In this document: one piece after another, positions 35,877-52,417 of the stretch | Position numbering within the stretch: position 1 is the first letter of the stretch | How the letters are laid out: every line of letters starts with the position of its first letter | Source of the DNA: a virus | Direction: 5' to 3' (one strand) | DNA length: 64,000 bases | Virus record (IMG/VR): IMGVR_UViG_3300026538_000054 | Location: 32,001-96,000 of that record | Made by a program: the position numbers and the translations under genes | The notes under the pieces: model-generated | Databases searched by the model: none | The model's input: only the letters and a program-made list of their open reading frames with translations | What the model was told of the DNA's origin: nothing

Positions 35877-38800
35877 ATGGCTAACCTACCGCCGCTTCAA
35901 GGCCCCGTCTCCGCGACGCCGTCAGGCCATGGCGCCCCTGTGACCATGCGGGCCTTTGACGATCACGCCGCGACCAGGGAGGCCATTTATTCCAAGACCC
36001 TGAAGGCCCTGGAGAAACTGCCGCCTGTCGAGAACGCGCGACACTCCTTGCGCGTCGAGAGGCCCGCCTACGCAGGCCCCGGCATGGTCTCCCTGGCCGA
36101 GCAAAACAGGGCCATTCTTGAAGGGCGGTCGCTTTTTCGCCGGCTCAAAGGCGACGTGGTCCTCACGGACAAGGCCACGGGCAAGGAGCTCGACCGAAAG
36201 AACGTGACCATCGCCCAGGTGCCCATGTACACCCAACGCGGCACGTTCATCTTTAACGGTTCTGAAAATGGATTGTCACACCAATTGAGGCTGCAGTCAG
36301 GCATCTACGCCCGAATACGCAGCACGGGCGAGGCGGAGTCGCACGTCAATGTACGGCCAGGCAAAGGCCTCTCTCACCGCTACTTCCTGGACCCGGAGAC
36401 CGGCCTCTTCAAGCTCCAGGCTGGACAGGCCTCTGTGCCCCTGGTCACCGTGCTGCGCGCGATGGGTGCGACAGACAGGGAGCTGCAAGAGGCCTGGGGC
36501 CGAGAGCTCTTCTCCGTTAACGCCAAGAAGGACGACCCGCGCTCCATCGAGAAGCTCTACGAGAAGCTGGAGCGACGCCCTGACAAGCAAGCCCCTGCCG
36601 AGGGCAAGCGCCTCAGGGTGGCCGAGCTCATGGCGAAGATGGAGCTTGACCCCGAGGTCACGAAGCGGACGCTGGGCCATCCCCATGCCACCCTGAGCAA
36701 GGAGACCATCCTGGCCGCCACCAGGAAGTTGCTCCGAGTGGCCAGGGACGAAGAAGAGCCGGACGACCGAGATCACCTGGCCTATCAGACCTTCCACGGC
36801 CCGGAGGACATGATCGCGGAGAGGGCTGAGCGGTCATCGCCCCTGTTCCACCAGCTTTTGTGGAAGGCGACGCGCACGGGCAAGCTGGACCATGTTCAGC
36901 CCAACTTCCTGTCCAAACATGTTCAAGGGGCCATCCTTGACTCAGGCATTGGTAACAACCTGGAAGAAATTAACCCATTAGAGTTCCTTAACAACGCGCA
37001 CAAGATAACTCGTATGGGCCGAGGCGGCATCGCCTCAATTGACAGTATACCTTCGTCCAGTAGAGCGGTTCACTCGAGTCACGTCGGTTTCATTGACCTG
37101 GTCTCGACCCCGGAAAGTCAACGTGCCGGCGTAGACACTCGCGCCGGGTTCAAGGCCCTGAAGGGCGACGACGGCCGGCTCTACACGCCGGTACACAACG
37201 CCAGGACTGGCAAGGAAGAGCTCAAAAGCCCGCAGGACCTGGCGGACGCCGTCCTCGCCTTCCCAGGGCAAATGCAAACCGGCAAGAAGCGCGTGACCGC
37301 CCTGGTCAAGGGCAGGGCGACCAGTGTGCCTCGCGAAGAGGTGGATTATGCCCTGCCCCACATGGAGCACGCCTTCACACCTACGTCCAACCTGGTCCCG
37401 CTCAAGGCCATGAGCAAGGGCCAGCGGGTGAGCATGGGTGGTCGGTTCCTGGTTCAGTCCGTGGCGCTCAAGGACGGTGAAGCGCCCCTGGTCCAGGGCC
37501 TTGTTCCCGGCACCAACAAGTCCTTTGAAGAGCTCTACGGACGCCACGTCGGCGCTGTCCATGCCAGAGATGATCAAGGCGGTCGCGTGGTGAAAGTTAC
37601 GCCCGACGGCATCACGGTCAAGTACGACGACGGCAAGACCGAAGAACACGAACTGTACAATCACTTCGTACTGAACAGGAAATCGCTTCTGCACAATACG
37701 CCAGTGGTGCGAGAAGGTGACAGGATTGAAGCGGGCCGTCCGCTGGCGAAGTCCAACTATACCGATGCCCAGGGCCGCGTGGCTGTCGGTAAGAACCTGC
37801 GCACGGCGTACATCGCACATGGTGGAGGTTCTTCCGCGAACTACGAGGATGCCTGGGTCATCAGCGAGTCGGCGGCCAAGAAGTTCACCAGCGACCACGC
37901 CTACCAGCACGCGATCGAGTGGGAAGACAACCACAAGCGCGGCAAGCGCACCTACCAGGCGCTCTTCCCTACGAAGTACGACCGAAAGACGTTGGAGCTC
38001 CTGGACGAAGATGGCGTGATCAAGCCAGGGACCAAGGTTGAGTCCGGTACGCCCCTGGTCCTGGCCGCCAGTCAGAAAGACCCTGATCGCAAGACCGTTC
38101 ACCAGAGTAGAGGCGGTGGCTTCTCAGACGCTTCTCTTGTCTGGGACCACCACGCTCCTGGAGAGGTGGTCAGCGTCGCCAAGACGGACAAGGGCGTCAA
38201 CGTTGTAGTTAGGTCATTTAATACGACTGAGATAGCGGACAAACTTTGTTACGACCCTGAGACGGAGGTGCTGACCAGCCGCGGCTGGGCGCGCGTAGCT
38301 GAGCTAACCACCGCCGACGAGGTCGCCACGTTGGGGCCAGAGGACCGGATCGAGTACCTCCAGCCTGTCGGTATCCACCGCTACCACCACATCGGCCGGA
38401 TGTATCGGCTGGAGACGACGCAGATCGATCTACTGGTCACCGAGAACCATCACCTGTACGCCTGCCGCAGGAATCGGTCTGAGTACTCTCTCCAGACTGC
38501 GTCCGAGCTATTCGGGAAGACGTTTCGGCTGAAACGAGACGGCGTGTGGACTGGCGCCTCGCCGGACTTCGTCAAGATGCCGGACCTCGTTGTTAAGGCT
38601 GGGCAGTTCGGCCACGGTGAGCGCGCCCTGGATGGGCCGAGCTTGCCGACCGACGTGTTTGTCATGCTACTCGGGATGTACCTGTCGGAGGGCTGTACGT
38701 TCAACCAGCCGAGCTACGGGTCGTACGGCATCGATATTACGCAGATCAATCCTGGCGGGCGCGCCAAGCTGTTTCCGGCGCTGGATGCCGCTGGTCTGAA

Positions 38801-41381
38801 GTACAACGCCACGTCGAACGGCGCGCGAATCTATAGCAAGTCGTTGATGGCCTATTTCAACCAGTTTGGGCGCGCCAAGGACAAGTTCATCCCTGAAGAG
38901 GTGTTTTTCTGGGCCACGGAGCACCTCAAGTCTCTTTACTACTGGCTCATGTGGGGCGATGGCTGTGAGGGTGGTACGGGCCACTCTTACTGCACCACGT
39001 CGCCTCGACTGGCCGACGACTTTCAACGGCTCCTGCTCCACATCGGGATGTCAGGCAACATCAAGAGGGTCGAAGCCAGGCGCGGCGTGATCAAGGGCAA
39101 GGAGTACGACTTCGCCCCTCGCTACGACGTTTCTGTCTTCCGGTCGAAAAACAGGCCAGAGATCAATCACGGTCACTGGAAGACCCAAAACGGGCAGAGA
39201 GAGGCCTGGGAGGAGTACTCAGGCGAGGTCTTCTGTCCGCAAATGCCGAAGAACCACGTCATCTATGTCCGCCGAAACGGCAAGCCGGTCTGGTGCGGCA
39301 ACAGCGGGCTTTACGGAGACAAAGGTGTTATATCGGGAATCATGAAAGATGATGAGATGCCTCATGATGAGAATGGCAAACCATTTGAGATGCTAGCTAA
39401 TCCTTTAGGAGTTATATCAAGAATTAACGCTAGCCAGGTGGCAGCGGCTGTCCTGGGCAAGATCGCCCAGAAGACGGGCCAGCCGTACAAGGTGGAGGAC
39501 TTCCCTCACGACAAAGAGGACATCACGGGCTGGGTGCAGCAAGAAGCCAAGAAGCACGGCGTCAAGGACCTGGAGACGGTGATCGATCCTGTGACAGGGA
39601 AGCGCATTCCCAACGTGTTGACAGGCGTTCGCTACTATATGAAACTACACCACTCGGCTGAGGGAAAGGCTTCTGCGAGGGGCCTTGGCGCCTACGACGC
39701 TGAAGGAACGCCTGCGCGAGGCCCTGGCGAGGCGGCTCAGGCCAAGCGACTGGCGCTCATGGAGACGAACGCGCTGCTCAGCCATTCCGCGCTTGACGTC
39801 CTCAAGGACGCCAGATTGGTTCGCGGTAACCAGAACGTCGAGCTCTGGGCGAGCTACATGGGCGGTGACCACCCGTCGACGCCGCCGGTGCCTTTTGTCT
39901 TTCAGAAGTTCGTGAATCAGCTCAAGGCCGCGGGCGTGAACGTGACGCGCAAGGGTGCGCAGACCAGGATCACCGCCCTGACCGACAAGGACATTGATGA
40001 GCTGGCGGGCGACAGGGAGCTGGGAAACGCCGAGACAGTCCACTGGGGCGAGGACATGCGGCCTGTCAAGGGCGGCCTGTTCGACGAGCAACTCACGGGT
40101 GGTCACACGGGCCAGAAGTGGGTGAAATTGGTTCTTGCCGAGCCGATGCTGAACCCGGTGATGGAAGAGCCAGCCCGTCGCCTCCTAGGCCTGACCCAGG
40201 CGCAGCTCGAGAGCGTGATCAAAGGAGAGCGAGAGCTTCAGGGCAAGAAGGGCCCGGAGGCCATCTCGCACGCGCTTGCGTCTATCAACCTGGAGAAGGG
40301 CATCTCGCGCGCCAGGGCGGATATCGCTTCGGGCAGGAAGACCTTGCGAGACGACGCCGTCAAGCGGCTGAGCTACCTGAAAGCGGCGCAGTCTACTGGC
40401 GTTCACCCTGGCGACTGGGTACTGAAGGCCGCCCCTGTTCTTCCTCCTATCTTCAGGCCGGTCTCCGTGATGCAGGGCACGGGCGGCACTCTGATTGCTG
40501 ACGCCAACGTGCTCTATCGCGACTTGTTCGAGTCGAACCAGGTCCTCAAGGGCCTGAAGGGGCAGGTTGACGACACCGGTGCCGAGATGTTGTCGGTCTA
40601 CAACGCGCTCAAGGCCGTTCAGGGGCTGGGTGATCCCGTCAACGCCAAGACGCAAGAGAAGAAGGTCAAGGGCCTTCTGGACACGGTCTTCGGCTCTTCC
40701 AGCAAGCACTCCGTGGTGCAGTCGAGGCTCATTGGTACGCCTGTCAACAACGTGGGTAGGGGCGTGGTGATCCCTGACGCCGATCTGGACATGGATGAGG
40801 TAGGCATACCGGAGGCCCACGCCTGGAAGGTCTACGAGCCTTCGCTCATCAGGTCGCTTGTCCGTCGCGGCATGGGCCGTGTTGACGCCCTGGCCCACGT
40901 CAGGGACAAGAGCGATGTCGCTAGGCAGGCCCTTCTGGCCGAGACGGAGAAGGGGCCGATTCTGATGACCAGGGCCCCTGTGCTTCATCGCTTTGGCATC
41001 TTGGCCTTGCTGCCGCGGCTGGTAAAGGGTGACGCTGTTAAGGTTAATCCTTACATAGTGGCAGGCCAGGGCATGGACTTTGACGGTGATGCTGTCAACT
41101 ATCATCTCCCTTTAACGCAAGAAGCTAAGCAAGAGGCTATGGAGAAGATGCTGCCCAGCAAGAGCCTTCTCGCCGTGAGCGACCTACACACACCGATGTT
41201 CAACGTCCGCCAGGAGTTCCAGGCCGGTCTCTACCGCATGACCCACGCCGAGAACAAAGAGAAGCGAGCGCGCACCTTCGCGACCATGAAGGACCTTCAC
41301 AAGGCCTACCTGCGCGGCGAGATCGAGGCGGACGATCCGGTGACGGTCATGGACCATGGCGGCCAGAGCGGTGCGAAGTAG
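35877..41381 (+). CDS. Phage multisubunit RNA polymerase: beta fused to N-terminal catalytic half of beta' (intein-containing)
   Basis: GTFIFNG, TPESQRAG, NYEDAWVIS, DKL|SGLYGDKGV, NPLGVISRIN, PVLPPIFRP, TRAPVLHR, GMDFDGD. Confidence 0.95.
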   Translation: MANLPPLQGPVSATPSGHGAPVTMRAFDDHAATREAIYSKTLKALEKLPPVENARHSLRVERPAYAGPGMVSLAEQNRAILEGRSLFRRLKGDVVLTDKATGKELDRKNVTIAQVPMYTQRGTFIFNGSENGLSHQLRLQSGIYARIRSTGEAESHVNVRPGKGLSHRYFLDPETGLFKLQAGQASVPLVTVLRAMGATDRELQEAWGRELFSVNAKKDDPRSIEKLYEKLERRPDKQAPAEGKRLRVAELMAKMELDPEVTKRTLGHPHATLSKETILAATRKLLRVARDEEEPDDRDHLAYQTFHGPEDMIAERAERSSPLFHQLLWKATRTGKLDHVQPNFLSKHVQGAILDSGIGNNLEEINPLEFLNNAHKITRMGRGGIASIDSIPSSSRAVHSSHVGFIDLVSTPESQRAGVDTRAGFKALKGDDGRLYTPVHNARTGKEELKSPQDLADAVLAFPGQMQTGKKRVTALVKGRATSVPREEVDYALPHMEHAFTPTSNLVPLKAMSKGQRVSMGGRFLVQSVALKDGEAPLVQGLVPGTNKSFEELYGRHVGAVHARDDQGGRVVKVTPDGITVKYDDGKTEEHELYNHFVLNRKSLLHNTPVVREGDRIEAGRPLAKSNYTDAQGRVAVGKNLRTAYIAHGGGSSANYEDAWVISESAAKKFTSDHAYQHAIEWEDNHKRGKRTYQALFPTKYDRKTLELLDEDGVIKPGTKVESGTPLVLAASQKDPDRKTVHQSRGGGFSDASLVWDHHAPGEVVSVAKTDKGVNVVVRSFNTTEIADKLCYDPETEVLTSRGWARVAELTTADEVATLGPEDRIEYLQPVGIHRYHHIGRMYRLETTQIDLLVTENHHLYACRRNRSEYSLQTASELFGKTFRLKRDGVWTGASPDFVKMPDLVVKAGQFGHGERALDGPSLPTDVFVMLLGMYLSEGCTFNQPSYGSYGIDITQINPGGRAKLFPALDAAGLKYNATSNGARIYSKSLMAYFNQFGRAKDKFIPEEVFFWATEHLKSLYYWLMWGDGCEGGTGHSYCTTSPRLADDFQRLLLHIGMSGNIKRVEARRGVIKGKEYDFAPRYDVSVFRSKNRPEINHGHWKTQNGQREAWEEYSGEVFCPQMPKNHVIYVRRNGKPVWCGNSGLYGDKGVISGIMKDDEMPHDENGKPFEMLANPLGVISRINASQVAAAVLGKIAQKTGQPYKVEDFPHDKEDITGWVQQEAKKHGVKDLETVIDPVTGKRIPNVLTGVRYYMKLHHSAEGKASARGLGAYDAEGTPARGPGEAAQAKRLALMETNALLSHSALDVLKDARLVRGNQNVELWASYMGGDHPSTPPVPFVFQKFVNQLKAAGVNVTRKGAQTRITALTDKDIDELAGDRELGNAETVHWGEDMRPVKGGLFDEQLTGGHTGQKWVKLVLAEPMLNPVMEEPARRLLGLTQAQLESVIKGERELQGKKGPEAISHALASINLEKGISRARADIASGRKTLRDDAVKRLSYLKAAQSTGVHPGDWVLKAAPVLPPIFRPVSVMQGTGGTLIADANVLYRDLFESNQVLKGLKGQVDDTGAEMLSVYNALKAVQGLGDPVNAKTQEKKVKGLLDTVFGSSSKHSVVQSRLIGTPVNNVGRGVVIPDADLDMDEVGIPEAHAWKVYEPSLIRSLVRRGMGRVDALAHVRDKSDVARQALLAETEKGPILMTRAPVLHRFGILALLPRLVKGDAVKVNPYIVAGQGMDFDGDAVNYHLPLTQEAKQEAMEKMLPSKSLLAVSDLHTPMFNVRQEFQAGLYRMTHAENKEKRARTFATMKDLHKAYLRGEIEADDPVTVMDHGGQSGAK
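38247..39302 (+). mobile_element. Intein with LAGLIDADG homing endonuclease in RNAP beta
   Basis: CYDPETEVLT...TENH...LGMYLSEG...WGDG...VWCGN|S. Confidence 0.92.
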
Positions 41382-41440
41382 CTGCTGCGTGTTGACGCTG
41401 TCTGGCAGTCTTTTCTTTTTCCGGAAAACATATTCAAGCG

Positions 41441-41509
41441 GCCAATAGCTAAAAGAAAACGGCGGGATGGCGCTTGCGCGCCACCTCCCGACCGTCTTCA
41501 TCCTGCGCT
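41441..41509 (-). repeat. 69-bp terminator-containing direct repeat (second copy 42061-42129)
   Basis: Two mismatches between copies. Confidence 0.85.
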
Positions 41510-41858
41510 ACCAGGCCCCACCCATTTTCCTCATCGAGGGCGCTGCGGCGTAGGCCCTGGCCTTGAGCCGCAGAGACCTAGGGAAGTAGCCGGACCGGCC
41601 GTCGATCTCGGCCAGGATCGCGTCGGCGAGGGAGGAGCAGACGGGAAGCACCAGGGCGAAGCGATTGGCCTGCCACTGACTGCCGCTCCACCCGACCTGA
41701 TCCACCATCGCCTTCGCCTGCGGCCCGAAAGGCGCAGTGACGTCGGCCTGACATTCGATGTTTTTCACTTCCTGGTCGCGCGCGACCAGGTGGGGGCTTT
41801 CGGTGATCGCCTTCAGGGAGGCGGCGGTCAACGGGTGACGGAAATTGAGAATGATCAT
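41508..41858 (-). CDS. Csx15-like protein (CARF-related, type III CRISPR ancillary family)
   Basis: MIILNFRHPLT...PFGPQ...VG-x-S...WQ...LAEIDGRSGYFP matches the Csx15 signature; C-terminus atypical. Confidence 0.8.
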   Translation of the reverse strand: MIILNFRHPLTAASLKAITESPHLVARDQEVKNIECQADVTAPFGPQAKAMVDQVGWSGSQWQANRFALVLPVCSSLADAILAEIDGRSGYFPRSLRLKARAYAAAPSMRKMGGAW

Positions 41859-41870
41859 AAAAGCTCCTTT

Positions 41871-41965
41871 ATCGGCGCGGGCACGCGAAAGTTCGCATGG
41901 CTACCCGCTCCTCACTACATATTGACGCAATTTATGTCATAATTAAGTTCTTATGCGCGGCGGCA
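41871..41965 (-). repeat. 95-bp promoter-containing direct repeat (second copy 43057-43151)
   Basis: Contains ACTTAA-15nt-CGTCAATAT. Confidence 0.85.
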
Positions 41966-42133
41966 GCCGTCGACTTGGAGTCGCCGACCAGAACAGACTG
42001 ACGCTACCTGACAGGCGTTCCTTTCTAGACTACTGGGCGGCGCAGTGCCGGAACCGAGAAGCCAATAGCTAAAAGAAAACGGCGGGATGGCGCTTGCGCG
42101 CCACTTCCCGACCGTCTTCGTCCTGCGCTGTCT

Positions 42134-42170
42134 GGCGCAGCATTCAGCCCGCTGCGCAGGGCTGCTTCAC
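42134..42170 (-). repeat. Solitary CRISPR-like repeat overlapping stop of 42167..42637
   Basis: Reverse complement GTGAAGCAGCCCTGCGCAGCGGGCTGAATGCTGCGCC. Confidence 0.8.
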
Positions 42171-42637
42171 TCGACGCGGCCCCACCGCCTGATAGCGGCG
42201 CCCCAGCGAGACGTGGAGCCGCAACAGGACGTGGGCGGATCATCCACCAGTCTAGGGCCTACCGTCGGCCCAACGCCTTGGGCATAGACAGATATCCATT
42301 TCTGCTTCATGAACAACTCGGCCTCCGGTCCCTGGTCGTTGACCTGGGACCGGCGATCCACGATCTCAGGCCGGCGAGTCGGGCCTTCGTCCGCTTCCTG
42401 CTCCGAGTGAGCCTCGGCGTCGAGCACGCTGATCCTGGACTGCACACGGTCGTTGTGCAGGCAACTCGCCGCCTTCAGAGCCGCCAGCCGGACGAACTCC
42501 TCGCGCTGAGCCCGACACTTGGCCTTGTCGAGCTGGTCGCAGAGGCCCTCGAACACGCCGATGACGATCAACGCCAGCGCGGCGATGACCAACAGAGAGC
42601 CGATGATCTCCACGAAGATGGCGGATTTCTTGTTCAT
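42167..42637 (-). CDS. Membrane-anchored hypothetical protein
   Basis: N-terminal TM, GGAG RBS. Confidence 0.55.
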   Translation of the reverse strand: MNKKSAIFVEIIGSLLVIAALALIVIGVFEGLCDQLDKAKCRAQREEFVRLAALKAASCLHNDRVQSRISVLDAEAHSEQEADEGPTRRPEIVDRRSQVNDQGPEAELFMKQKWISVYAQGVGPTVGPRLVDDPPTSCCGSTSRWGAAIRRWGRVE

Positions 42638-42751
42638 TTTTCTCCCTTTCAGAAAACGAAAAAGGGAGGCCTGAAAACAGGCCTCCCGGCACCGGAAATC
42701 GAGAAGATCAGAAGACAGGAGAGGGCGGCCCTCTCCTGGCAACGCGTGTAA

Positions 42752-43036
42752 TCAGCTCGCGATGGCCGCGAGCCTGGAAGGGGAGCGCAGCCCGCGCCTC
42801 TCGCGCAGTCGCGCGCGTAAGCAGTGCAGGGCCGCCTCGTAGCGGCCCGTGCCGTCCAGGGGCTGGTTCAGTCGGTAGGACTCGACGACCGCCAGCGCGG
42901 CGGTGGCGGCAGCGTCGGCCATGTCGGCCGCATCGAAGTCGACGTCACGGCAGCACGCGGTCGCCGTCTTCTTGATTTTCTCGGCCGCGATCTCCGCCGA
43001 CCGCCGACACAGGAACAGGATCTGTTCGCCGAGCAT
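42752..43036 (-). CDS. Hypothetical protein
   Basis: Follows duplicated promoter. Confidence 0.55.
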   Translation of the reverse strand: MLGEQILFLCRRSAEIAAEKIKKTATACCRDVDFDAADMADAAATAALAVVESYRLNQPLDGTGRYEAALHCLRARLRERRGLRSPSRLAAIAS

Positions 43037-43128
43037 GACAAGGCTCCGTCAACGAGATCGGCGCGGGCACGCGAAAGTTCGCATGGCTACCCGCGCCTCA
43101 CTAAATATTGACGCAATTTATGGCCTAA

Positions 43129-43374
43129 TTAAGTTCTTATGCGCGGCGGCACAAGAGAGGCCACGTCCTTGTTGGTGAGCACCACGGTCCGGTCCAGGCC
43201 CAGCGACTCCAGGTGCCTCTCGAAGTCCGGCTCGCCGGCGGAGATGAACCGTACGTGCTCCTGGCTCACCTGGAAGAAGACGGCCAGCGGGCGGCCCTGA
43301 TTATCCTTGATCACGAGCCGGGTGGCGTTTATCCGGACCGGCGACTCCATCCTGTTGTGCGATTCCAGGATCAT
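43129..43374 (-). CDS. Hypothetical protein
   Basis: Coupled to 43379..44104. Confidence 0.55.
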   Translation of the reverse strand: MILESHNRMESPVRINATRLVIKDNQGRPLAVFFQVSQEHVRFISAGEPDFERHLESLGLDRTVVLTNKDVASLVPPRIRT

Positions 43375-43378
43375 GCTC

Positions 43379-44104
43379 TCACCACCCTTCCACGGGCTGT
43401 TCGCCCACGGCCGCTTCTCTCTCCTTGAGTCGCTTCTGGAACCGCCAGGCGGCCACGCGGGCGTGTTCGACCGTGGACAGTTCGGCCCTGGGCAGGCCCC
43501 TGCCGTGCGAGGCTTGCTTGCCGCCTGCCTGCGGGAAGGCGCTTTGCATCGGCTCCATGGGCTGGATGGTGCTTTGCGGCGGCTGTCCACCCGCCTGCCC
43601 CTGTTCTTGTCCTCCCTGGACCACCGAGCCACCGTCGGCCGCTTGCGCCGGCATGCCGGTGACAGGGTCGCGGTTCGGGCCGTCCAGGATGTCGGGCGGC
43701 GGCTCCTTGCCTCTGGAGCGCATGTCGTGCATGACCAGCTTCTTGAGCTGAAACATGTCCGTGGCCATGGCGGCAGGGTCCGGTTTGTTGGTCTTGGGCT
43801 GTCCCTTGCCCGCTCCCACCCCTGACTGAGCCAGGGCGTTGTTCACGGCCGTCTGCACGGTCGTGGCCAGGTCGCCCCCTCCTTCCGTCGGAGTGGGCGC
43901 AGGGATGGGAGGGGCCGTAGGCGGCGGCATGGCCCCGCCACCGCCAGCAGGGCCTTGAGCCGGTGGCGGCGGGGACATCGCACCACCCTCCGACGCGGGT
44001 GGCCCGCCGCCACCAGCGGCGGCAGCGGCCGCGTCGGAGGGGACGGCAGCCTTTTTCGCGATGGCGGCCCGAGCGTAGAAGAGAGCGGCCTTGTCCAGGG
44101 GCAT
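43379..44104 (-). CDS. Pro/Gly-rich protein with KxA motifs
   Basis: AGGAG RBS; DKAA, KKAA, KQAS. Confidence 0.6.
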   Translation of the reverse strand: MPLDKAALFYARAAIAKKAAVPSDAAAAAAGGGGPPASEGGAMSPPPPAQGPAGGGGAMPPPTAPPIPAPTPTEGGGDLATTVQTAVNNALAQSGVGAGKGQPKTNKPDPAAMATDMFQLKKLVMHDMRSRGKEPPPDILDGPNRDPVTGMPAQAADGGSVVQGGQEQGQAGGQPPQSTIQPMEPMQSAFPQAGGKQASHGRGLPRAELSTVEHARVAAWRFQKRLKEREAAVGEQPVEGW

Positions 44105-44167: not shown

Positions 44168-44207
44168 GCTTAATAGGTCTCCATTCCGTGTCAATATTTC
44201 TTGCCAC
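44168..44207 (+). promoter_or_regulatory. Bipartite phage promoter-like motif
   Basis: GCTTAA-15nt-TGTCAATATTTCTTGCC. Confidence 0.7.
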
Positions 44208-44269
44208 CGCCTAGATCGTGCTGATACGACCGGTAGCGCGCTCTTGCTATCTTGAACATCCAGCCAGTG

Positions 44270-44306
44270 TTTGCAGCAATAAGCCCGCTGCAGAGGGCTT
44301 TGGTAC
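44270..44306 (-). repeat. Solitary CRISPR-like repeat
   Basis: Reverse complement GTACCAAAGCCCTCTGCAGCGGGCTTATTGCTGCAAA. Confidence 0.8.
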
Positions 44307-44354
44307 GTCGGTCATCTTAGCAGGTACGGTGAAACGGTCGCTCGAGAGGCCTTC

Positions 44355-44563
44355 ACCTGCGACCACTGCAACTGGGACGAGGTCCAGGCCTGGCAGGGCG
44401 GGCTGATCAGACAACTGGCCAGGCTGGCCTACGAAGGCCGTCAACCGGTTGACGGCGCTCTTGACCCGGCTGCGAGGAGCAAGCCATCCTTGAGTACCTT
44501 CGCAGCGCAGGCCCCCACGTCAGGGGCTGCTGGGCCCTTGACCTCGTTCTCGGTAAGGACTGA
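44355..44563 (+). pseudogene. C-terminal remnant of Gemmata-type family gene
   Basis: LIRQLARLAYEG...GALDP / GCEEQAILEYLRSAGPHVRGCWALDLVLGKD in shifted frames. Confidence 0.7.
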
Positions 44564-44568
44564 CGAAG

Positions 44569-45471
44569 ATGACTTTGAGACAATGGCTTGATGGCCAGGC
44601 CCTGTGGTCGATGTTCACGACGGCCGAGATCAGTGAGCGAAAACAGCGACTTCTGGTCTGTGTGCTGGCCCAAAAAGCGCTGCGAAAATATAAGGCTAAT
44701 GCGAGCAGAAAGGCCATCGAGACGTCTCTGCGTTACGCCGACGGCCTGGCTGACTCGGCAGAACTGTACCGAGCCTTTGTCGAGGCCAGGTCCCTTTGCA
44801 ACTCGACTTCGCTGCCGCTGTCTAGCTGCAAACTGCTCGCTATGCGCATAGCGGGCTGCTGCGCCAGCTTGTCCCTGACCCACTTTTTCAGTGACAACTG
44901 GTTGCCGGCTCAGGGCGACGTGGGCTGGGAGGCCCTGCGATGTGCCATGCGCGAGGTTGTCGAGGCGCCTTTCGCCCTGAGGCGACTGTGCATCTTCAAG
45001 CCGTCCAGGAGGCGCGCCGACAGGTTCCTGGCCTCGCTGGTGGAGAGGAATGAAACGACCCAGACGGCAGAGAAGCGCAAGAAAGGCGTGGCATCTTCCA
45101 CCCTGGTGGAAGAGAGGTGGAAGAAGGTCGACTGGCTCTCCAGGGCCGCGCTTGACATCGCCAGGTTGATCTACGAAGAAGACCGCTTCGAGGACCTGCC
45201 CATCCTTGCCGACGCCCTGGAAGACGCCGGCTGTACAGAGGAGCACCTGCTCATGCACCTGAGAGGCAAGTCGCAATGCCCCGCCTGTCTGGAGAGCCGC
45301 CAGGCCCTGGCGGCCATCGAGCAAGTGGCTGCGCAGGCACGGTCGAAAGGCGTCAGGACCAGTGGCGCCGGTCAGGTCTCTTGCAGCGAGTGCAACCAGG
45401 GCTGGCGGCCTCTTCAAGGCCCGCACTTCAAGGGCTGCTGGGCCCTTGATCTCATCCTCGGAAAGGAGTGA
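44569..45471 (+). CDS. Gemmata-type expanded family protein
   Basis: ERKQRLLVC, LPILADALEDAGC, HFKGCWALDLILGKE. Confidence 0.8.
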   Translation: MTLRQWLDGQALWSMFTTAEISERKQRLLVCVLAQKALRKYKANASRKAIETSLRYADGLADSAELYRAFVEARSLCNSTSLPLSSCKLLAMRIAGCCASLSLTHFFSDNWLPAQGDVGWEALRCAMREVVEAPFALRRLCIFKPSRRRADRFLASLVERNETTQTAEKRKKGVASSTLVEERWKKVDWLSRAALDIARLIYEEDRFEDLPILADALEDAGCTEEHLLMHLRGKSQCPACLESRQALAAIEQVAAQARSKGVRTSGAGQVSCSECNQGWRPLQGPHFKGCWALDLILGKE

Positions 45472-45725
45472 AACCGGTGGACAACACCAACCAGTCTGGA
45501 TCGCGGGAGCCCGCGGACGTGCTGCTCGAGGCGCTGAAGACGCCCGGTAAGACGAAGGTACGTTTCACGTTCGAGGCAGGCATATCTCGCGAGGCCATCA
45601 CCGAGCGGCTCGACGCGCTCAGAAAACTAGTCGAAAGCGTCGGCGGGACGATGACCGTGGAGAGCGTGGACTTTCCCGACGCCGAATGGGACGACGAATC
45701 GGCCGCTATGGAGGAGCACCCGTGA
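45468..45725 (+). CDS. Hypothetical protein
   Basis: Translational coupling. Confidence 0.5.
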   Translation: MKPVDNTNQSGSREPADVLLEALKTPGKTKVRFTFEAGISREAITERLDALRKLVESVGGTMTVESVDFPDAEWDDESAAMEEHP

Positions 45726-46339
45726 CGACGTTGCAAACCATCATTGATCTCCAGGCCGCTCACCGCGCCGTCCTGGAAGAGCCGTTCCGTGATGAGTGGC
45801 GACTCGCCTACGCCGACGCGCGAGAGGACATGGGCCTGGGCCTCGACGCCGAGTTTCTTCGCGACAGGGTGGCCGGCAAGCCCGATGATACCGAGGGCTA
45901 CTGGTTCGGGCCGGCCCTGCCCAACGAAGTGAAGGCGCACCAGATCTACAAGGGCTTCGTCTCTGGCGTGTCGCTGGCCTGCGGGGGCTTTCAGCGACAC
46001 GCCAGGGAGCTATTCTCCTCTCACCCGATCATCGGGGTCATCCTCACGGACAGACACGCCGGCCTAGTTGGCCTGGATGGCCATGACGATTTGTCCTACT
46101 TCTTAGACGAGGCCCGCTGGCCCACTTTGACTAGCAAGACCGACCGGTTGCCTCACGCCGTTTACGAGCTACTTGAGCCGGACCTGCTGACTCGCATCGG
46201 CAACAAGGGCTTTACGAGCCCGGAGAGGGCCAACAGGGCACTGAGCCAGGCCCTGGTACGCTACGGGCGAGGCCTGGTGCAACCGCCCCTGCCCGAGCTG
46301 GTGTTTCCCAAGCCCGAAGAAGAGGAGAAGGACCGATGA
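45722..46339 (+). CDS. TIGR02996-domain protein
   Basis: RAVLEEPFRDEWRLAYAD...KGFVSGV...HPI. Confidence 0.7.
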   Translation: MTTLQTIIDLQAAHRAVLEEPFRDEWRLAYADAREDMGLGLDAEFLRDRVAGKPDDTEGYWFGPALPNEVKAHQIYKGFVSGVSLACGGFQRHARELFSSHPIIGVILTDRHAGLVGLDGHDDLSYFLDEARWPTLTSKTDRLPHAVYELLEPDLLTRIGNKGFTSPERANRALSQALVRYGRGLVQPPLPELVFPKPEEEEKDR

Positions 46340-46842
46340 ACTGCCGCGTGAGGCTCACTGATGTCCAGGGTGATCGAGCTGGTTTCGCCGACCTGATCGG
46401 CAAGGAGGGGGCGCTTACCACCGTCGCCGAGGGCGTGTACTTGTCGCTCGACGGCGTGATCGGTTCCATGACTCTGCCGGCCCGGAGCATCGAGAAGGAC
46501 GACGAGAAAATCGTGGTCAAGACCCGACGGGACAACACCTTCGTCTTCGCCGTCGGCAAGGGCTTGCTCGCCGCGGCCCAGGCTGACAAGGCGCACAAAG
46601 AAGAGCACAAGGATAAGGCCGCGCCGGCCATGCCCGAGGAGAAGAAACCGCATCACGAAGAGATCAGGCCCTCCGAGCCAGAGAAGAAGGACGTGCCGGA
46701 GAGCATCACCCAGCCGATCGTCGAGCTGCCTCCTCCCGAGGAGAAGAAGGCGCAGCCGGAAGAGAGCAAGCCCGCGCAGGCGCCCAAGAAGGATGCCTCT
46801 ACGCCGCCGGCTACCGGCAAGCACGAGAGAAAAGGGAAGTGA
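46336..46842 (+). CDS. Hypothetical protein
   Basis: Coupled operon. Confidence 0.6.
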   Translation: MNCRVRLTDVQGDRAGFADLIGKEGALTTVAEGVYLSLDGVIGSMTLPARSIEKDDEKIVVKTRRDNTFVFAVGKGLLAAAQADKAHKEEHKDKAAPAMPEEKKPHHEEIRPSEPEKKDVPESITQPIVELPPPEEKKAQPEESKPAQAPKKDASTPPATGKHERKGK

Positions 46843-47261
46843 TGGCGAGCGAGGAGCGGGCGAACAAGCCGTTCTATCTGAGCGTGTTCCTGCGACCAGG
46901 GAAGTCACCCGAGGCCCCACAGCGATTGCATGTGCGTGTCGGCCTCACCTCCTGGGCCGGGGTAGATGATGCGGCGGGACGCGAGAACAGACTTCATGAA
47001 TGGACTTTCAGCCACGCTCATGCTCCCGCCCCCGATGCCCGAACCGTTGATGTTGTCGTGATCGCCCCGCAGTGCCGCGTCGAGCCTCTGTCCGCCCGGC
47101 TGCCCTGGCCTCCGGGGGAGGAGCAGTTCCGCGAGTTCTTCCTCACCCTCTTCCCCGAAGAGGTCGGCAAGCGGGACAGCCTCTGGGTTCGGGTGGAGCT
47201 GCTGACCCGGAATCGGGAGGTCGAGTCGGTGCAGGAAGAGTTCGCTCTGTCCGTAGGGTAG
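46839..47261 (+). CDS. Hypothetical protein
   Basis: Coupled operon. Confidence 0.55.
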   Translation: MMASEERANKPFYLSVFLRPGKSPEAPQRLHVRVGLTSWAGVDDAAGRENRLHEWTFSHAHAPAPDARTVDVVVIAPQCRVEPLSARLPWPPGEEQFREFFLTLFPEEVGKRDSLWVRVELLTRNREVESVQEEFALSVG

Positions 47262-47324
47262 TGGCCGCAAAATGGATGACTAACGCCCGGCCTAGACAAG
47301 AAGAGAGGCCACGACCATGAGCGA

Positions 47325-47361
47325 TTCGCAGCTTTTAGCCCGCTGCGTAGGGCTTGATCAC
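47325..47361 (-). repeat. Solitary CRISPR-like repeat antisense to operon
   Basis: Reverse complement GTGATCAAGCCCTACGCAGCGGGCTAAAAGCTGCGAA. Confidence 0.8.
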
Positions 47362-47415
47362 GTCTGCTAGCCCAGTGAAGCGCGCCGATTGGTCAAGTAG
47401 CGAGGGACAAGCACC

Positions 47416-47628
47416 ATGAGCGACAAAGCCTGGATCGTGTTGCGCTGTGAGATTTGTGATCGTGAAGAGGGCCCGATGACCAAGGCAGAGATGGTGACCT
47501 GCCGGAACGAAGGCTGGTCGGGCCTCGAGAGGGGATACTTCCCCGGCTGGTGGCCAAGACACATACCCATCACCTGGACGCATATGGGTGACTGCCCCGC
47601 GTGCGTCAAAGAGGCGAAAATAGCATGA
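47416..47628 (+). CDS. Small zinc-finger protein
   Basis: CEIC...CPAC. Confidence 0.6.
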   Translation: MSDKAWIVLRCEICDREEGPMTKAEMVTCRNEGWSGLERGYFPGWWPRHIPITWTHMGDCPACVKEAKIA

Positions 47629-47834
47629 CGATAGAAGAACGAGAGGCGTTTCTGGGCTGGCGAGCCAACGAGGCGCCGACGGAAGAGCAACTGCGCTACC
47701 TGGCCCGCAGGCTCTTAAACCATCTACCCATGAGCAGGGTCATGTCCTGCGACGTCGATGAGGCCGTCACGTTGCTCAAGGCCCTTCACGAACACGGTCG
47801 TTTGTGCGGCGCTGCTGAGTTCATGCGGCTGTGA
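47625..47834 (+). CDS. Hypothetical protein
   Basis: Coupled. Confidence 0.5.
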   Translation: MTIEEREAFLGWRANEAPTEEQLRYLARRLLNHLPMSRVMSCDVDEAVTLLKALHEHGRLCGAAEFMRL

Positions 47835-47912
47835 AGACGGGCGCAGTTTGATCCGGAAAAGAAACCAGGGGCCGGCTGCCGTGTAGCCTGGCCCTCTCAC
47901 CAGGATGAGGAG

Positions 47913-48224
47913 ATGAAACGACGACCTGTGGTGACGAGAGAGATCCTAGAGGGCTTGTGTCAAGCCTACGGCCGCATGGAGGCGGACGACCTGTCTGACC
48001 TGACCGATGAGCAGCAGGCCGCGTTCGAGGCGGCTGGGCGGTGGGTCAGTAAGATGTGGGAATTCATGCCACCTTCGGAACGGCGGGAGGAAGAAGCCGA
48101 GGCGCTGCTTGACCAGCAGCGCGCCAGCGGCCCCATCCAGGAAGCTCAGGAGCGGATGGCTAACCGTATCAAGGAGATACAGGCGGAGAAGAACCGGCAA
48201 GGGCCGTACCACTGGGAGGCGTGA
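47913..48224 (+). CDS. Hypothetical protein
   Basis: GAGGAG RBS. Confidence 0.6.
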   Translation: MKRRPVVTREILEGLCQAYGRMEADDLSDLTDEQQAAFEAAGRWVSKMWEFMPPSERREEEAEALLDQQRASGPIQEAQERMANRIKEIQAEKNRQGPYHWEA

Positions 48225-48282
48225 CTGACCCGCGACACCTGAGCGGCCCTCGCCCGGCCGCTCGTCTCTGAAAGATGATTGG

Positions 48283-48480
48283 ATGACGCCGGAACACCGT
48301 GACAATATTCGCGCCGCCAACAAGCGGCGCAGCAAGCACCTCTGTCAAAGCTGCGGCCAGCTCGTGACCGTTCGAGATGGATCGGAAGTTGGCGGCTTGC
48401 CTGGAGTCAAGTACCGCCAGTGCAACGGCTGTGGTGCGACCGTCGCCATTACCAGGCGGCCTCCTCGTCGCCTGCCGTAA
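48283..48480 (+). CDS. Small zinc-ribbon protein
   Basis: CQSC...CNGC. Confidence 0.55.
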   Translation: MTPEHRDNIRAANKRRSKHLCQSCGQLVTVRDGSEVGGLPGVKYRQCNGCGATVAITRRPPRRLP

Positions 48481-48521
48481 ACCGGCCCGGTTCGCCAGAC
48501 GGGCCATATAGAGGAGTGAGA

Positions 48522-48950
48522 ATGTCCGAGATGAAGCACACGGAAGAGCCTTGGGAATTGGTGTTGATGGAGGAGGGGCCGGTACTGATGGGTGGAGACG
48601 GCCAGCCAGTGCTGTACTCCATGCCGCAAAAGGCGCCGTACCGTCGCCCTCCAGAGGAGCGAGCCGCCAACATGCGTCGCATGGGCGTGTGCGTCAACGC
48701 CATGGTTGGTGTGCCCAACGAGGCGGTGGAAGAGGTGACGTGCAGACTGGGCGCCTTGATCCGACAGCGGGACGCGTTTTTGGCGATCGTAGCGGCCTAC
48801 GAGCAATGGGAGGCCGACCTGATCCAGTCGCAAGAAGCGTGGGCGGGAGGGCTGGCTCCGTTGCCGACCCTGACGCAGGAGTTGTTCGACCGCTTGCTGG
48901 AGATTCAGGCGTTGCGCAACGCCGCCATCGCCAGCGCGAACGGCAAGTAA
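48522..48950 (+). CDS. Phage hypothetical protein (HTxEPW...ANxRR...CVNA motif)
   Basis: Motif typical of small phage proteins. Confidence 0.6.
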   Translation: MSEMKHTEEPWELVLMEEGPVLMGGDGQPVLYSMPQKAPYRRPPEERAANMRRMGVCVNAMVGVPNEAVEEVTCRLGALIRQRDAFLAIVAAYEQWEADLIQSQEAWAGGLAPLPTLTQELFDRLLEIQALRNAAIASANGK

Positions 48951-48986
48951 CCAAGACAGAAGCACGGCCCTGGAGGGACCACGAAG

Positions 48987-49511
48987 ATGAACAACTGGGC
49001 CACCATCGACGACCCTTTGGACGAGGAAGAGCGCCGCGCCTTGCTAGCCGCCAAGGACCGCGGTCGTAAGCGCCTGAAGAGCGGCGTCATGGACATCCGT
49101 CCAGACCTGCACGCGGTCGCTCGCGGGGGCCTGGAGGCCGAGGTCCGCCGGCTGCAGCTCCTCGTCTTCCGTCTGCTCAGGGACAGGCCGCCCAGCCTTT
49201 CTCAGCCCGACGACGCACCCGAGCTGAAAACGCCATGCGCCCAGATGGAGCGGGCCTTGCTTGACGCCATGGCGTTTCTTTCCCGCTTGTCTGATGCCGA
49301 CGAGCTGTGCGACCGGATCATCGGTCTCCTGGAGCCGGGGGCGTGCGGTATCGACGGTTGTAAAGACCCAGCGGACCATCTGGTATGGGACCGGGTCAAG
49401 GAACAGGTAGTTCGTTGCTGCGACAGCCACTCCAACGAGATCCTCGACCAGGAAGGCCCGGAGTACTCCAGTTTCTGCCCCAACTGTGGTTGCGACATCC
49501 CTATCAACTGA
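48987..49511 (+). CDS. Cys-rich hypothetical protein
   Basis: C-terminal CPNCG. Confidence 0.55.
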   Translation: MNNWATIDDPLDEEERRALLAAKDRGRKRLKSGVMDIRPDLHAVARGGLEAEVRRLQLLVFRLLRDRPPSLSQPDDAPELKTPCAQMERALLDAMAFLSRLSDADELCDRIIGLLEPGACGIDGCKDPADHLVWDRVKEQVVRCCDSHSNEILDQEGPEYSSFCPNCGCDIPIN

Positions 49512-49594
49512 CTCCTGCTAACATCACGGGTTGTCAAGCCCGCCGCGGCGGGCCTGTTGCCGCGACCACCCGATGTGCCACGCGTGAGAACTTC

Positions 49595-52417
49595 ATGCCC
49601 CTTAACAGCACCGCCGGCCAGGCCCTCGTGAACGCCGTCCTCCCTGAGGAACTGCGCAACCACGAGCGCGCCCTGGACAAGAAGGGCATGGCCTCGCTCA
49701 TGAAGGAGGTGGCCAGGAAGCACCCTGAGCAGTACCGAGAGGTCCTCTTTCGCCTGGGGAAGCTAGGCCATCTCACCGCCTACCACACAGGGTCTCTCTC
49801 CTTTGGCCTGGAACACATGCGCACCGCGGTCAGCGCCAGAGACATGAAGAGAAAGCTGCGCCAGGAGATCGATCAGATCTATGACCACCGTTCTCTATCT
49901 CAAAAAGAGAAAGAACAGAAGATCGTTGAGCTGGTGAGCTCCTATCAAGCTCCTCTCGAGAAGGCCGTCTACGACGAGTCCCTTGCCGAGGGAAACCCTC
50001 TTGCTCTGCAAGTTCTCTCAGGGGCCAGGGGCAACAAGACCAACCTGCGCTCCCTGAGAGGCGCTGATCTTCTCTACGTAGACCACAAGGACCAGCCCGT
50101 CCCCATCCCTATCTTGCGATCCTACTCCGAGGGCCTGACCCCGGCTGACTACTATGCCGGCAGTTTCGGAGCGCGAAAGGGCGTCATTGACGTCAAGCAG
50201 GGCGTGGCTGATTCGGGCTTCGCCTCCAAGTTGCTCGTCCAGATGTCTCATCGCCTGGTGACCACCTCTCTGGATCATCCCGAGCCACCCTCTCGTATCA
50301 GGGGCCTGCCTGTTGACCTTGACGACCCTGACAACGAAGGTGCTCTCCTCGCCCATGACATAGGGCCGTTCAAGAGAAACACCGTCCTCACCCCTGACGT
50401 GCTTCACCGGCTCAAGCAAGAAGGCCACAAACACCTCCTTGTGAGATCGCCTACCGTCGGCGGCCCGCCTGACGGAGGAGTGTACGCCCGTGACGTTGGT
50501 ATCAGAGAGAAGGGCGTGATATCTCCCGTAGGAGATTTCGTCGGCATCGCCGCCGCACAGGCTCTCTGCCTAGCTGAAGGCACGTTGGTCACCCTGGCTG
50601 ATCTCACTTTCAAGCGCATCGAAGAGGTCGCTCCGGGAGACCTTATTCTGGCGGCCAACAGCAAGGGTGAGACCGCTTCGGCCAAGGTGAACAGACGTTT
50701 CCTTAACGGCCCCCGTGCGTGTTTACGTTACTTCTGGTCGAATCAGGAGCATTCTGTTCTTGCCACGAGCGAACACAAAGTGCTCAGGCCTGACAAGACC
50801 GTCAGGCCCTTCGACCAGACCTCCGTGGTCTTGCTTCATACGCCTCAAGGGCCTACTCCAGCCGCCCTGGATGAGCCTCTTCATCAAGAGCCAATCATCC
50901 TGCCCACCTATGACCTGGAGATCGACCACCCCGAGCATCTCTACGTGCTCAAGGGCGGCTTGATCGTGGCCAACTCTGAGCCTCTTACCCAGAGCACGCT
51001 GGGCAGCAAGCACTCGGGGGGCGTAGCTGGGGCCAAGAAATCAGGGCCTACGGGCTTCAAATTGCTCTCTTGCTTGGGAGAAGGCACGTTGGTGCGCATG
51101 GCCGACGTGCCTTCCAAGGAGATTGAGAAGATCAAGCCGGGTGACAGGGTCATCGGTGCGAACTTGGAGGGGGGATGGTTCCCCGTCCAGGTCAAGAACG
51201 TCTTTGACAACGGCCAGCGCCCTTGTCGCACGTTCACCTTTGAGTCGATGCTTGGTGAGGAGAGCCTCACTGCCACGGACGACCATCTCGTACTGGCTCA
51301 GGCGCCCTGCTACAAGATCGACAAGACCCTGGCTGACAAGGGCCTGAAACGGTTTGATGAGTGGGAAGGCGGCCTCAAGGTCTCGCTGGGAGAGATACGC
51401 ACGGCGCATAACTTGCCTCACCCGTTGGCGCCTGTGGGCTACAGGCCTGTGAAGGCCGCCAAGGAGCCTGGTTCTCCAGGCGTTCGTGTCGAGCTCCTCT
51501 ACGCCACCCCTGAGGTGCTTCTCCCTACCTACGACCTGGAGGTGGATCACCCTGACCACCTCTTCGTCCTGGCCAACGGCCTGGTGGTGAGCAACTCGCA
51601 GATTCAGGTTCCCAAGGCCTTCCCATCTGGAGCTTCTCACTCTCAAGAAGATGGCCGCGTGCAAGCCGTCTTCCCTGCGCCCCAGGGCGGTAACTACGTG
51701 CAGGTCAACGGCCACAAGCACTACGTGGCCCCTGGCTTCGACGTCCTGGTCAAGCCAGGCGATGAGGTTGAATCTGGCGATGTTCTCAGCGAGGGAGTAC
51801 CGAACCCTGCGGAAGTGGTGGCTCACAAGGGCGTTGGAGAAGGCAGGGCCTACTTCGTCCAGGCGTTCAGAGACTCGTTCAAGCGCTCAGGCCTGCAGGC
51901 GCATCGCCGGAACATCGAGCTGGTCGCCAGGGGCCTGATTGACCATGTCAGGCTTACCGAGGAGCATGGGCACTACTCCCCGGATGACGTAGTGCAGTAC
52001 TCCCGTCTGGAGAGGGACTGGCAGCCAAGAGACGGTGCCAAGGAAAAGGCCCCCAACGAGGCCATGGGGCACTACCTGGAAGCGCCGGTGCTGCACTACT
52101 CCATCGGGACGAAGATCAGGCCCAGCGTGGTGAAGCGCCTGTCTCAGTTCGGCGTCAAGAGCGTGTTGGTGCATCAGCAACCACCGCCTTTTGAGCCTGA
52201 AATGGTCAGGGGGATGGAGAACCTGACCCATGACCCCGACTGGATGACGAGATTTCTGGGGCCTTATGTGAAAAAGAACTTCCTGAAGGGCGTTGCCAGG
52301 GGTGACATCTCCGACGAGGCCGGAAGCAGCTACGTCCCTTCTCTGGCCAGGGGAGCGGACTTCAACCGTCTGCCGCCTGTCAAGGGCTTTGACCCCAGGT
52401 CTCTGGGCCAGCTCTAA
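49595..52417 (+). CDS. Phage RNA polymerase beta' C-terminal subunit (two mini-inteins)
   Basis: SGARGN, SYSEGLT...GARKG (bridge helix), VGIAAAQAL|SEPLTQ...KHSGG (trigger loop), HRRNIELVAR. Confidence 0.93.
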   Translation: MPLNSTAGQALVNAVLPEELRNHERALDKKGMASLMKEVARKHPEQYREVLFRLGKLGHLTAYHTGSLSFGLEHMRTAVSARDMKRKLRQEIDQIYDHRSLSQKEKEQKIVELVSSYQAPLEKAVYDESLAEGNPLALQVLSGARGNKTNLRSLRGADLLYVDHKDQPVPIPILRSYSEGLTPADYYAGSFGARKGVIDVKQGVADSGFASKLLVQMSHRLVTTSLDHPEPPSRIRGLPVDLDDPDNEGALLAHDIGPFKRNTVLTPDVLHRLKQEGHKHLLVRSPTVGGPPDGGVYARDVGIREKGVISPVGDFVGIAAAQALCLAEGTLVTLADLTFKRIEEVAPGDLILAANSKGETASAKVNRRFLNGPRACLRYFWSNQEHSVLATSEHKVLRPDKTVRPFDQTSVVLLHTPQGPTPAALDEPLHQEPIILPTYDLEIDHPEHLYVLKGGLIVANSEPLTQSTLGSKHSGGVAGAKKSGPTGFKLLSCLGEGTLVRMADVPSKEIEKIKPGDRVIGANLEGGWFPVQVKNVFDNGQRPCRTFTFESMLGEESLTATDDHLVLAQAPCYKIDKTLADKGLKRFDEWEGGLKVSLGEIRTAHNLPHPLAPVGYRPVKAAKEPGSPGVRVELLYATPEVLLPTYDLEVDHPDHLFVLANGLVVSNSQIQVPKAFPSGASHSQEDGRVQAVFPAPQGGNYVQVNGHKHYVAPGFDVLVKPGDEVESGDVLSEGVPNPAEVVAHKGVGEGRAYFVQAFRDSFKRSGLQAHRRNIELVARGLIDHVRLTEEHGHYSPDDVVQYSRLERDWQPRDGAKEKAPNEAMGHYLEAPVLHYSIGTKIRPSVVKRLSQFGVKSVLVHQQPPPFEPEMVRGMENLTHDPDWMTRFLGPYVKKNFLKGVARGDISDEAGSSYVPSLARGADFNRLPPVKGFDPRSLGQL
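50567..50974 (+). mobile_element. Mini-intein 1 (136 aa)
   Basis: CLAEGTLV...TSEHK...TYDLEID...LIVAN|S. Confidence 0.9.
51071..51595 (+). mobile_element. Mini-intein 2 (175 aa)
   Basis: CLGEGTLV...TDDHL...TYDLEVD...LVVSN|S. Confidence 0.9.

Follow-up and report, generated by a model that had tools for sequence, protein, structure and literature searches.

We analysed a stretch of viral DNA of 64,000 nucleotides (nt; positions 32,001 to 96,000 of the IMG/VR record IMGVR_UViG_3300026538_000054; below, the window), which carries at positions 35877-52417 the genes of a multisubunit RNA polymerase of unusual layout. One gene encodes the beta subunit fused to the N-terminal half of beta' (beta'N), a second gene encodes the remainder of beta' (beta'C), and once three inteins are taken out the two chains (1482 + 629 = 2111 amino acids, aa) contain no cysteine at all. 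Within the literature searched, subscription journals lying outside the search, neither this layout nor the zinc-free state has been described, and judged by its sequence the polymerase represents a genuine variant of the bacterial-type enzyme that is conserved and probably works. The reading which we favour, at a probability of about two in three, is that two genes give a minimal RNA polymerase which depends on sigma and is carried in the virion; after splicing it would be free of cysteine and zinc, and the covalent link would take the place of the alpha platform. The window corresponds to C51:70146-134145, minus strand, of contig C51 (199,122 bp), which was assembled together with a 5.4-Mb bacterial isolate, below called the host.

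Layout of the two genes and its conservation

The first gene (35877-41381, plus strand) was characterised by translation, Pfam searches and alignment with the host rpoB and rpoC products and with gp206 of Salmonella phage Arash, and encodes a precursor of 1834 aa which is 1482 aa long after splicing. Its single reading frame contains Rpb2_2, Rpb2_3 and Rpb2_6 (E 1e-39), followed by Rpb1_1 and Rpb1_2 (E 9e-19), and this order bears out the claim of the initial annotation, made from the letters alone, that beta is fused to the N-terminal half of beta'. The beta' part begins at about the segment LTDKDIDELAG (39978-40010, plus strand). This junction segment, together with the C-terminal end of the fused chain, is conserved across 263 sampled relatives, and the phage chain has the junction signature of the fused clade, ...G(I/V)NV.R.G....LTDKD(I/V)....

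Aligned with the host subunits, the phage chains retain the catalytic aspartate triad, both beta lysines, the bridge helix and the trigger-loop histidine, and lack the large lineage-specific insertions of the host subunits. The two-barrel signature is present, with the DxDGD triad reading GMDFDGD in the catalytic Mg loop (41070-41090, plus strand; all three aspartates retained) and with both beta lysines (ADK...GDKG) in place after splicing, SGLYGDKG being located at 39303-39326 immediately 3' of intein 1. GMDFDGD and GLYGDKG had been pointed out as deviations before, and both are indeed there, as minority forms of the subclade described below: its norm is GR(Y/F)GDKG at the one motif and G(A)DFDGD at the other, where GMDFDGD is rarer than GADFDGD. 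The structure prediction that had been proposed as a check gave, for the beta'N part, best fold matches to gamma/RpoC1 chains and bacterial beta', whereas the region of the second zinc site was modelled poorly (see below).

The second gene (49595-52417, plus strand) encodes a precursor of 940 aa, 629 aa after splicing, with the bridge helix, the trigger loop and a clade-specific C-terminal insertion. Its open reading frame (ORF) extends from 49385 to 52417 and contains the Pfam domain Rpb1_5 and Hint modules; the real start is M71 of this long ORF, at nt 49595, because the gene at 48987-49511 overlaps the longer frame and database gene calls give 940 aa. With this start the remainder of beta' lies, as had been claimed, 8.2 kb downstream on the same strand and starts just before the TxG motif, so that beta' is cut after the catalytic barrel. 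Both the bridge helix (GARKG...SGF...) and the trigger loop (AAQAL|SEPLTQ...KH, the bar marking an intein) align with the host sequence. On the cyanobacterial gamma subunit, which has 625 aa, the fused chain reaches to about residue 568, and beta'C begins ahead of the start of RpoC2. In these alignments the gamma/beta' boundary of cyanobacteria and plastids lies about 50 residues C-terminal of the split; the initial annotation had placed the split near the rpoC1/rpoC2 boundary, which is correct as to the neighbourhood, the split not being at the boundary itself. Near the beta' C-terminus (52204-52417) there is an insertion of about 40 residues which the fused clade has, Arash and Vibrio phage D69 among its members, and which bacterial beta' lacks; it might provide contacts for which alpha or omega is otherwise responsible.

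The same layout was found in many other phages. The two chains can be aligned over their full length with Arash gp206 (1525 aa) and gp216 (606 aa), which have the same junction and split point and from which the zinc ribbon is likewise deleted; the gene pair is also present in Vibrio phage D69, where it is annotated as hypothetical, and the Vibrio phages D148 and D181 share the layout too. The 120 best matches to the junction region in a collection of 5.8 billion proteins all have Rpb2_6 together with Rpb1_2 and nearly all of them span the junction, on contigs of up to about 235 kb. In a library clustered at 50% identity, 1385 representatives matched the junction region with E <1e-30, the best 150 of which cover it except for fragments and intein-interrupted matches. 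A scan of IMG/VR with a single protein gave no matches; with an alignment as query, 553 IMG/VR contigs were found to encode the junction region. None of the 263 sampled relatives contains the beta'C part, that is, no unsplit single-chain form was seen among them. A tree built on the catalytic region of beta' recovers the fused clade, including the C51 phage, with a support of 100/99 and the cysteine-free subclade with 99/98; this tree, which the initial annotation had suggested as a check, is unrooted and comprises 19 rows with three bacterial sequences only.

We conclude that the fused-and-split layout is standard for a large clade and that the C51 phage is an ordinary member of this large uncultured clade. 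That the fusion is an artefact of assembly, a failure which the initial annotation itself had considered, or of the reading frame can practically be dismissed, as the same junction occurs in the 263 sampled relatives, in the 553 IMG/VR contigs and in cultured phages with complete genomes, and nothing was found in favour of an artefact. The other objection foreseen, that the layout is already standard for a described clade, was half right: it is standard for a large clade, but no paper was found that describes it.

Zinc sites, cysteine and inteins

The N-terminal zinc finger of beta' had been reported as missing, and we find in its place the sequence GGLFDEQLTGGHTGQKW (40071-40121, plus strand), where the host and Rhizobium phage RHph_Y65 have a Cys4 ribbon. 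An N-terminal beta' zinc-binding domain is not recognisable, since the ribbon is deleted and no cysteine is left. The ribbon is likewise absent from Arash, from Vibrio phage D69 and from all members of the subclade. At the equivalent of the second beta' zinc site (50261-50500, plus strand) the alignments show that all four cysteines are replaced: TTSLDHP (50261-50281) stands in for the fourth cysteine and RSPTVGGPPDGGVYARDVG (50444-50500) for the C..C..C stretch of the host. These cysteines are missing in all 120 of the closest beta'C relatives, in which the replacement motif VRSP.VGGP.DGGVYARDVG.RE is conserved.

The loss goes further than the earlier claim of a second site without cysteine, as the spliced chains hold none whatsoever. 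All cysteines of the two ORFs are confined to the inteins or to the spurious 70-residue leader of the second one. Given the phage-wide cysteine content of about 1.6%, a figure derived from crude gene calls, the probability of finding none in 2111 aa is about 3e-15. Cysteine is also absent from 92 of 106 intein-free fused relatives and from 81 of 83 beta'C relatives. A five-way alignment arranges these enzymes in a graded series. Rhizobium phage RHph_Y65 has an unsplit beta' with the ribbon, the second site and the motif NADFDGD; in Arash and Vibrio phage D69 beta' is fused to beta and split, the ribbon is lost, the four cysteines of the second site are kept as the only ones in beta'C, and the motif reads AADYDGD; in the C51 subclade, equally fused and split, ribbon and second site are both lost and the motif is G(A/M)DFDGD. 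By these sequence comparisons a large subclade, which contains the C51 phage, is set apart by having lost every cysteine together with the second zinc site.

An enzyme without cysteine could still bind zinc or another structural metal via histidine, aspartate or glutamate. An invariant histidine and several invariant aspartates flank the replaced second site (HRL...D...D, DGG...RD) and the exteins contain 77 histidines; the ribbon, however, has been deleted and not substituted, and the replacement motif is rich in glycine and proline with only one invariant histidine nearby. We regard a metal-binding variant as clearly unlikely. A fold model of beta'C residues 71-394 reached a mean predicted local distance difference test score (pLDDT) of 66.5, with values of about 50 at the equivalent of the second zinc site and at the bridge helix. 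The literature search turned up no report of a multisubunit polymerase that lacks both zinc sites, and nothing relevant on cysteine depletion in ejected phage proteins or on zinc-less phage polymerases.

Alignment with host rpoB and rpoC and with Arash gp206 places three inteins, where the initial annotation had spoken only vaguely of intein removal. Intein 1 (38247-39302, plus strand; 352 aa, aa 791-1142 of the first protein) is of the LAGLIDADG type, with a weak Pfam match to LAGLIDADG_3, and interrupts the beta active-site motif ADKL|SGLYGDKG. Intein 2 (50567-50974, plus strand; aa 395-530 of the long-ORF protein) is a mini-intein of 136 aa in the trigger loop, AAQAL|SEPLTQ, and intein 3 (51071-51595, plus strand; aa 563-737 of the same protein), a mini-intein of 175 aa with a Hint match, is located just past the trigger loop, in KLLS|SQIQ. 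Each has Cys1, a TxxH block (TENH, TSEH and TDDH, respectively), a terminal asparagine and serine at position +1, and from these residues all three look able to splice. Since a serine and not a cysteine follows each intein, the spliced protein remains free of cysteine. Inteins are also frequent in the relatives (P0004-P0265), whose fused chains reach 3350 aa; their matches break recurrently in P0001:1143-1834 at about residues 40, 115-145, 270, 470 and 597-604, the last position being directly after DFDGD.

The three inteins, the unusually long and rearranged interval of 8.2 kb and the minority substitutions beside catalytic residues (GRxGxKG with L in place of R, and GM in place of NA before DFDGD) are what could be expected if the genes were decaying, intein-riddled remnants without an active polymerase. 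We nevertheless consider this very improbable. The frames are open over 1834 and 940 codons with a coding-type G+C content at third positions (GC3), all catalytic residues are retained, the three inteins have kept their splicing residues, and the relatives, which are 50-60% identical, have strongly conserved motifs.

Phage genome, sigma-like protein and packaging

The G+C content of C51 is even at 63%, compared with about 66% in the other contigs of the assembly. Its two ends share an identical overlap of 100 bp, so that the contig assembles as a circle. It encodes a portal protein, a large terminase split by an intein and a sigma-like protein, all three of which have homologues in Arash, and the bacterium's own rpoB, rpoC, rpoA and rpoZ sit on contigs other than C51. 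From the circular assembly, the Arash-homologous genes and the separate location of the host rpo genes we conclude that the assembly of the isolate also yielded the complete genome of a large phage, C51.

There is a single polymerase set on C51. The alpha and omega families PF01000, PF01193 and PF01192 gave matches (E up to 1) only on host contigs and none on C51. It had been stated that neither alpha nor sigma is visible in the window; this is true of the 64 kb, and has to be qualified as there is a sigma-70-like gene elsewhere on the contig, at C51:25179-25856. Its product (P0386, 242 aa) is free of cysteine, is 26% identical to Arash gp10, matches Sigma70_r3 with 38.5 bits (cut-off 25.3) and has a C-terminal helix-turn-helix. 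It has 69 homologues, several of them on contigs equal in size to those with the fused polymerase. In a model of the complex the N-terminal helices of the sigma-like protein (residues 21-60) are docked on the coiled-coil helices of the beta' clamp (chain residues 386-434). The interaction prediction score from aligned errors (ipSAE) of this model is 0.65, a mark attained by 58 of 80 solved complexes and by 2 of 110 mismatched pairs; the best control has 0.01. At least 79% of the contacts are shared between runs, and the pLDDT of the partner is at least 77. As bacterial holoenzymes have already been solved, the model shows likeness to these structures and not binding.

These results suggest how the enzyme might be made and used. 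After the three inteins have spliced out, chains of 1482 and 629 aa without cysteine would remain, and the covalent link between beta and beta' would substitute for the alpha dimer as assembly platform. Both structural zinc sites are lost, the ribbon by deletion and the second site by rebuilding with a conserved motif rich in glycine, proline and aspartate. The phage sigma-70-like protein would dock on the beta' clamp helices and recognise the promoters. By homology with Arash the enzyme is probably packed in the capsid, and its delivery together with the DNA would allow phage transcription to start without the host polymerase. As the most speculative step, the enzyme would then have lost cysteine and zinc in adapting to being stored extracellularly and delivered. 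Only tentatively, and at somewhat less than even odds, we propose that a minimal polymerase of two chains and a small sigma, without alpha, omega, zinc and cysteine, has been selected by storage in the capsid, by passage in partly unfolded form through the tail and an oxidising periplasm and by the need to refold unaided.

The virion data come from Arash, the only phage for which a polymerase of the fused clade is known to be present in the virion. There Gp206 was the most detected protein with 3516 spectra, and Gp216 and the sigma protein Gp10 were found with 1210 and 467 spectra (PMC10585845). Among the abundant virion proteins of Arash gp4, gp217 and gp10 are free of cysteine, which fits, without proving it, the idea that proteins kept in the particle and delivered into the host are under selection to avoid cysteine and zinc. 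In the C51 phage we noted four other long proteins without cysteine, of 496 aa (window 22807-24297, plus strand), 442 aa (window 11605-12933, minus strand), 907 aa (C51:28903-31626) and 451 aa (C51:53617-54972), the 907-aa protein being encoded 3 kb from the sigma-like gene. All four are candidates for further packaged or delivered proteins.

Several points weigh against a virion-carried, zinc-free enzyme of two chains. Packaging is argued from Arash, whose polymerase is only about 30% identical and still has the second zinc site, and the portal gene, which adjoins the polymerase gene in Arash, is about 47 kb away in C51. The C51 phage has an integrase and its life cycle may differ from that of Arash. 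From the poor model at the second zinc site it does not follow that the fold persists there in the absence of zinc, and metal binding by residues other than cysteine would be compatible with the sequence. Finally, an alpha- or omega-like subunit without detectable similarity could be hidden among the conserved small neighbouring genes.

Some of these points also speak for a working polymerase which is not packaged but made after infection to transcribe middle or late genes, its lack of cysteine resulting for instance from redox stress or from evasion of host factors. Portal and polymerase genes are not adjacent in C51, and the integrase suggests a life cycle which possibly relies on the host polymerase at first. 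We judge this alternative to be rather unlikely, since the Arash orthologues of both polymerase and sigma are abundant in virions, other highly detected Arash virion proteins are free of cysteine too, and the C51 phage has one polymerase set only, whereas phiKZ-type phages have separate virion and non-virion enzymes.

The interval between the polymerase genes (41382-49594) is 8.2 kb long in the C51 phage, compared with a median of about 1 kb in the relatives; in 64 of 80 IMG/VR loci beta'C starts on the same strand at most 4 kb downstream. Searching by tblastn with the neighbouring genes of two loci of relatives (L005 and L006) located two small conserved genes (81 aa and 241 aa) at 43129-44104 on the minus strand. 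In the relatives they are situated between the polymerase genes on the same strand, and in C51 they are inverted. Neither has a Pfam match, and an Atlas search with the 241-aa gene gave no lead. They belong to an inverted block (41508-44104, minus strand), besides which the interval contains about eight extra plus-strand genes without family match. The three genes which normally follow beta'C are found 22 kb further downstream, outside the window. This displacement and the inversion of the small genes show that the long gap is a local rearrangement peculiar to the C51 phage. A perfect G+C-rich palindrome, GCCCGCCGCGGCGGGC, is located at 49537-49552, 43 nt upstream of the beta'C start, and could be the terminator of the upstream gene.

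Most C51 genes have no match to a phage family, and scans of 20 neighbouring genes against PHROGs and Pfam detected only an integrase, a kinase-like domain and two phrog_2384 paralogues. The tyrosine-integrase gene is at 25119-26249 on the minus strand (phrog_1, E 6e-48); from this gene and the circular assembly the phage may be temperate, or it may be an episome in the isolate. The phrog_2384 paralogues, each with an Ant-like C-terminal part, are encoded at 10232-11278 (minus strand, E 1e-116) and 21546-22601 (plus strand, E 1e-108), and a protein of 646 aa with a kinase-like C-terminal domain (phrog_18508, E 8e-10) at 16389-18329 (plus strand). An analysis of 7-mer enrichment in 92 upstream intergenic regions of C51 revealed no clear phage promoter motif.

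Relation to known RNA polymerases

The closest described systems are Arash (gp206, gp216 and the sigma-like gp10; OQ632216; PMC10585845) and the Vibrio phages D69, D148 and D181. They have in common with the C51 phage the fusion, the split point, the ribbon deletion and the C-terminal insertion, they encode a homologous sigma-like protein and they fall into the same group of the tree. They differ at about 30% identity by keeping the cysteines of the second site and the motif AADYDGD, by the lack of inteins and by genes which are 0.6-4.7 kb apart. In the Arash paper the proteins are simply named beta and beta' and the fusion is not mentioned (PMC10585845).

With the bacterial core enzyme (alpha2, beta, beta', omega) and sigma-70 the phage enzyme shares the two-barrel active site, bridge helix, trigger loop, clamp helices and a partner of the sigma-70 family, and its best matches in sequence and fold are bacterial beta' and cyanobacterial gamma. 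Unlike in the bacterial core, beta and beta' are joined in C51, the cut in beta' follows the barrel, genes for alpha and omega were not found, and the zinc sites and all cysteines are gone. Natural rpoB-rpoC fusions exist in Helicobacter and Wolbachia, where the end of beta runs on into the start of beta'; these are full-length cellular enzymes with alpha, omega and the zinc sites kept. In cyanobacteria and plastids beta' is likewise divided past the catalytic barrel (rpoC1 and rpoC2), and it is gamma/RpoC1 which the N-terminal half resembles best in fold. There, however, the cut is about 50 residues further C-terminal, a boundary that C51 does not share, beta and gamma are separate chains and the zinc sites are present.

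The phiKZ/AR9-type polymerases (PMC7598289, PMC8287921, PMC7618050) are also encoded by phages, without alpha and omega and with a beta' that is split after the barrel. They differ in that beta comes in two to three pieces and is unfused, that there are two paralogous sets and no sigma-70 homologue recognisable by sequence, and that they are far more diverged from the bacterial enzymes. With its whole, fused beta, its single set and its sigma-like gene the C51 enzyme is not of this type. In the phiKZ nvRNAP both zinc sites are retained (C288/C341/C350/C353 of gp74, Cys4 domain of gp55; PMC8287921). The N-terminal zinc domain has been called common to all multisubunit polymerases (Lane and Darst, via PMC7618050) and was not seen in the AR9 nvRNAP (PMC7618050). 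Reviews on jumbo phages treat the phiKZ-type enzymes only (PMC7598289, PMC7824862, PMC13282480).

Bacterial-like beta and beta' are also found in other large phages, the mReC phages (Weinheimer and Aylward 2020, PMC7481178) and the Kleczkowskaviridae, for example RHph_Y65, whose unsplit beta' of 1127 aa has both zinc sites and the motif NADFDGD. The mReC phages have T4-type capsids and encode beta and beta' separately, with lengths of about 1000/900 aa or about 1370/1005 aa, and the paper is silent on fusion, split, zinc and inteins in their polymerases (PMC7481178). The subunit lengths (Supplementary Data 2) rule out that the C51 enzyme belongs to this group. A search for Gp23/PF07068 gave no match on C51, but none in the control genomes either.

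If the enzyme is indeed a minimal polymerase of the kind proposed, structural zinc and the alpha platform, which are usually held to be universal in this enzyme family, would be dispensable. A clade which lacks the zinc sites and alpha, and at the same time has a sigma and is similar to the bacterial enzymes, makes it testable what zinc sites and alpha are needed for, and also how a large enzyme survives packaging in and delivery by a phage. The series from RHph_Y65 via Arash and D69 to the cysteine-free subclade is a ready-made comparison set for this purpose. The inteins at active-site motifs make the polymerase family useful for intein biology, and a cysteine-free polymerase of two chains would be a possible simple system for structural work and for orthogonal transcription.

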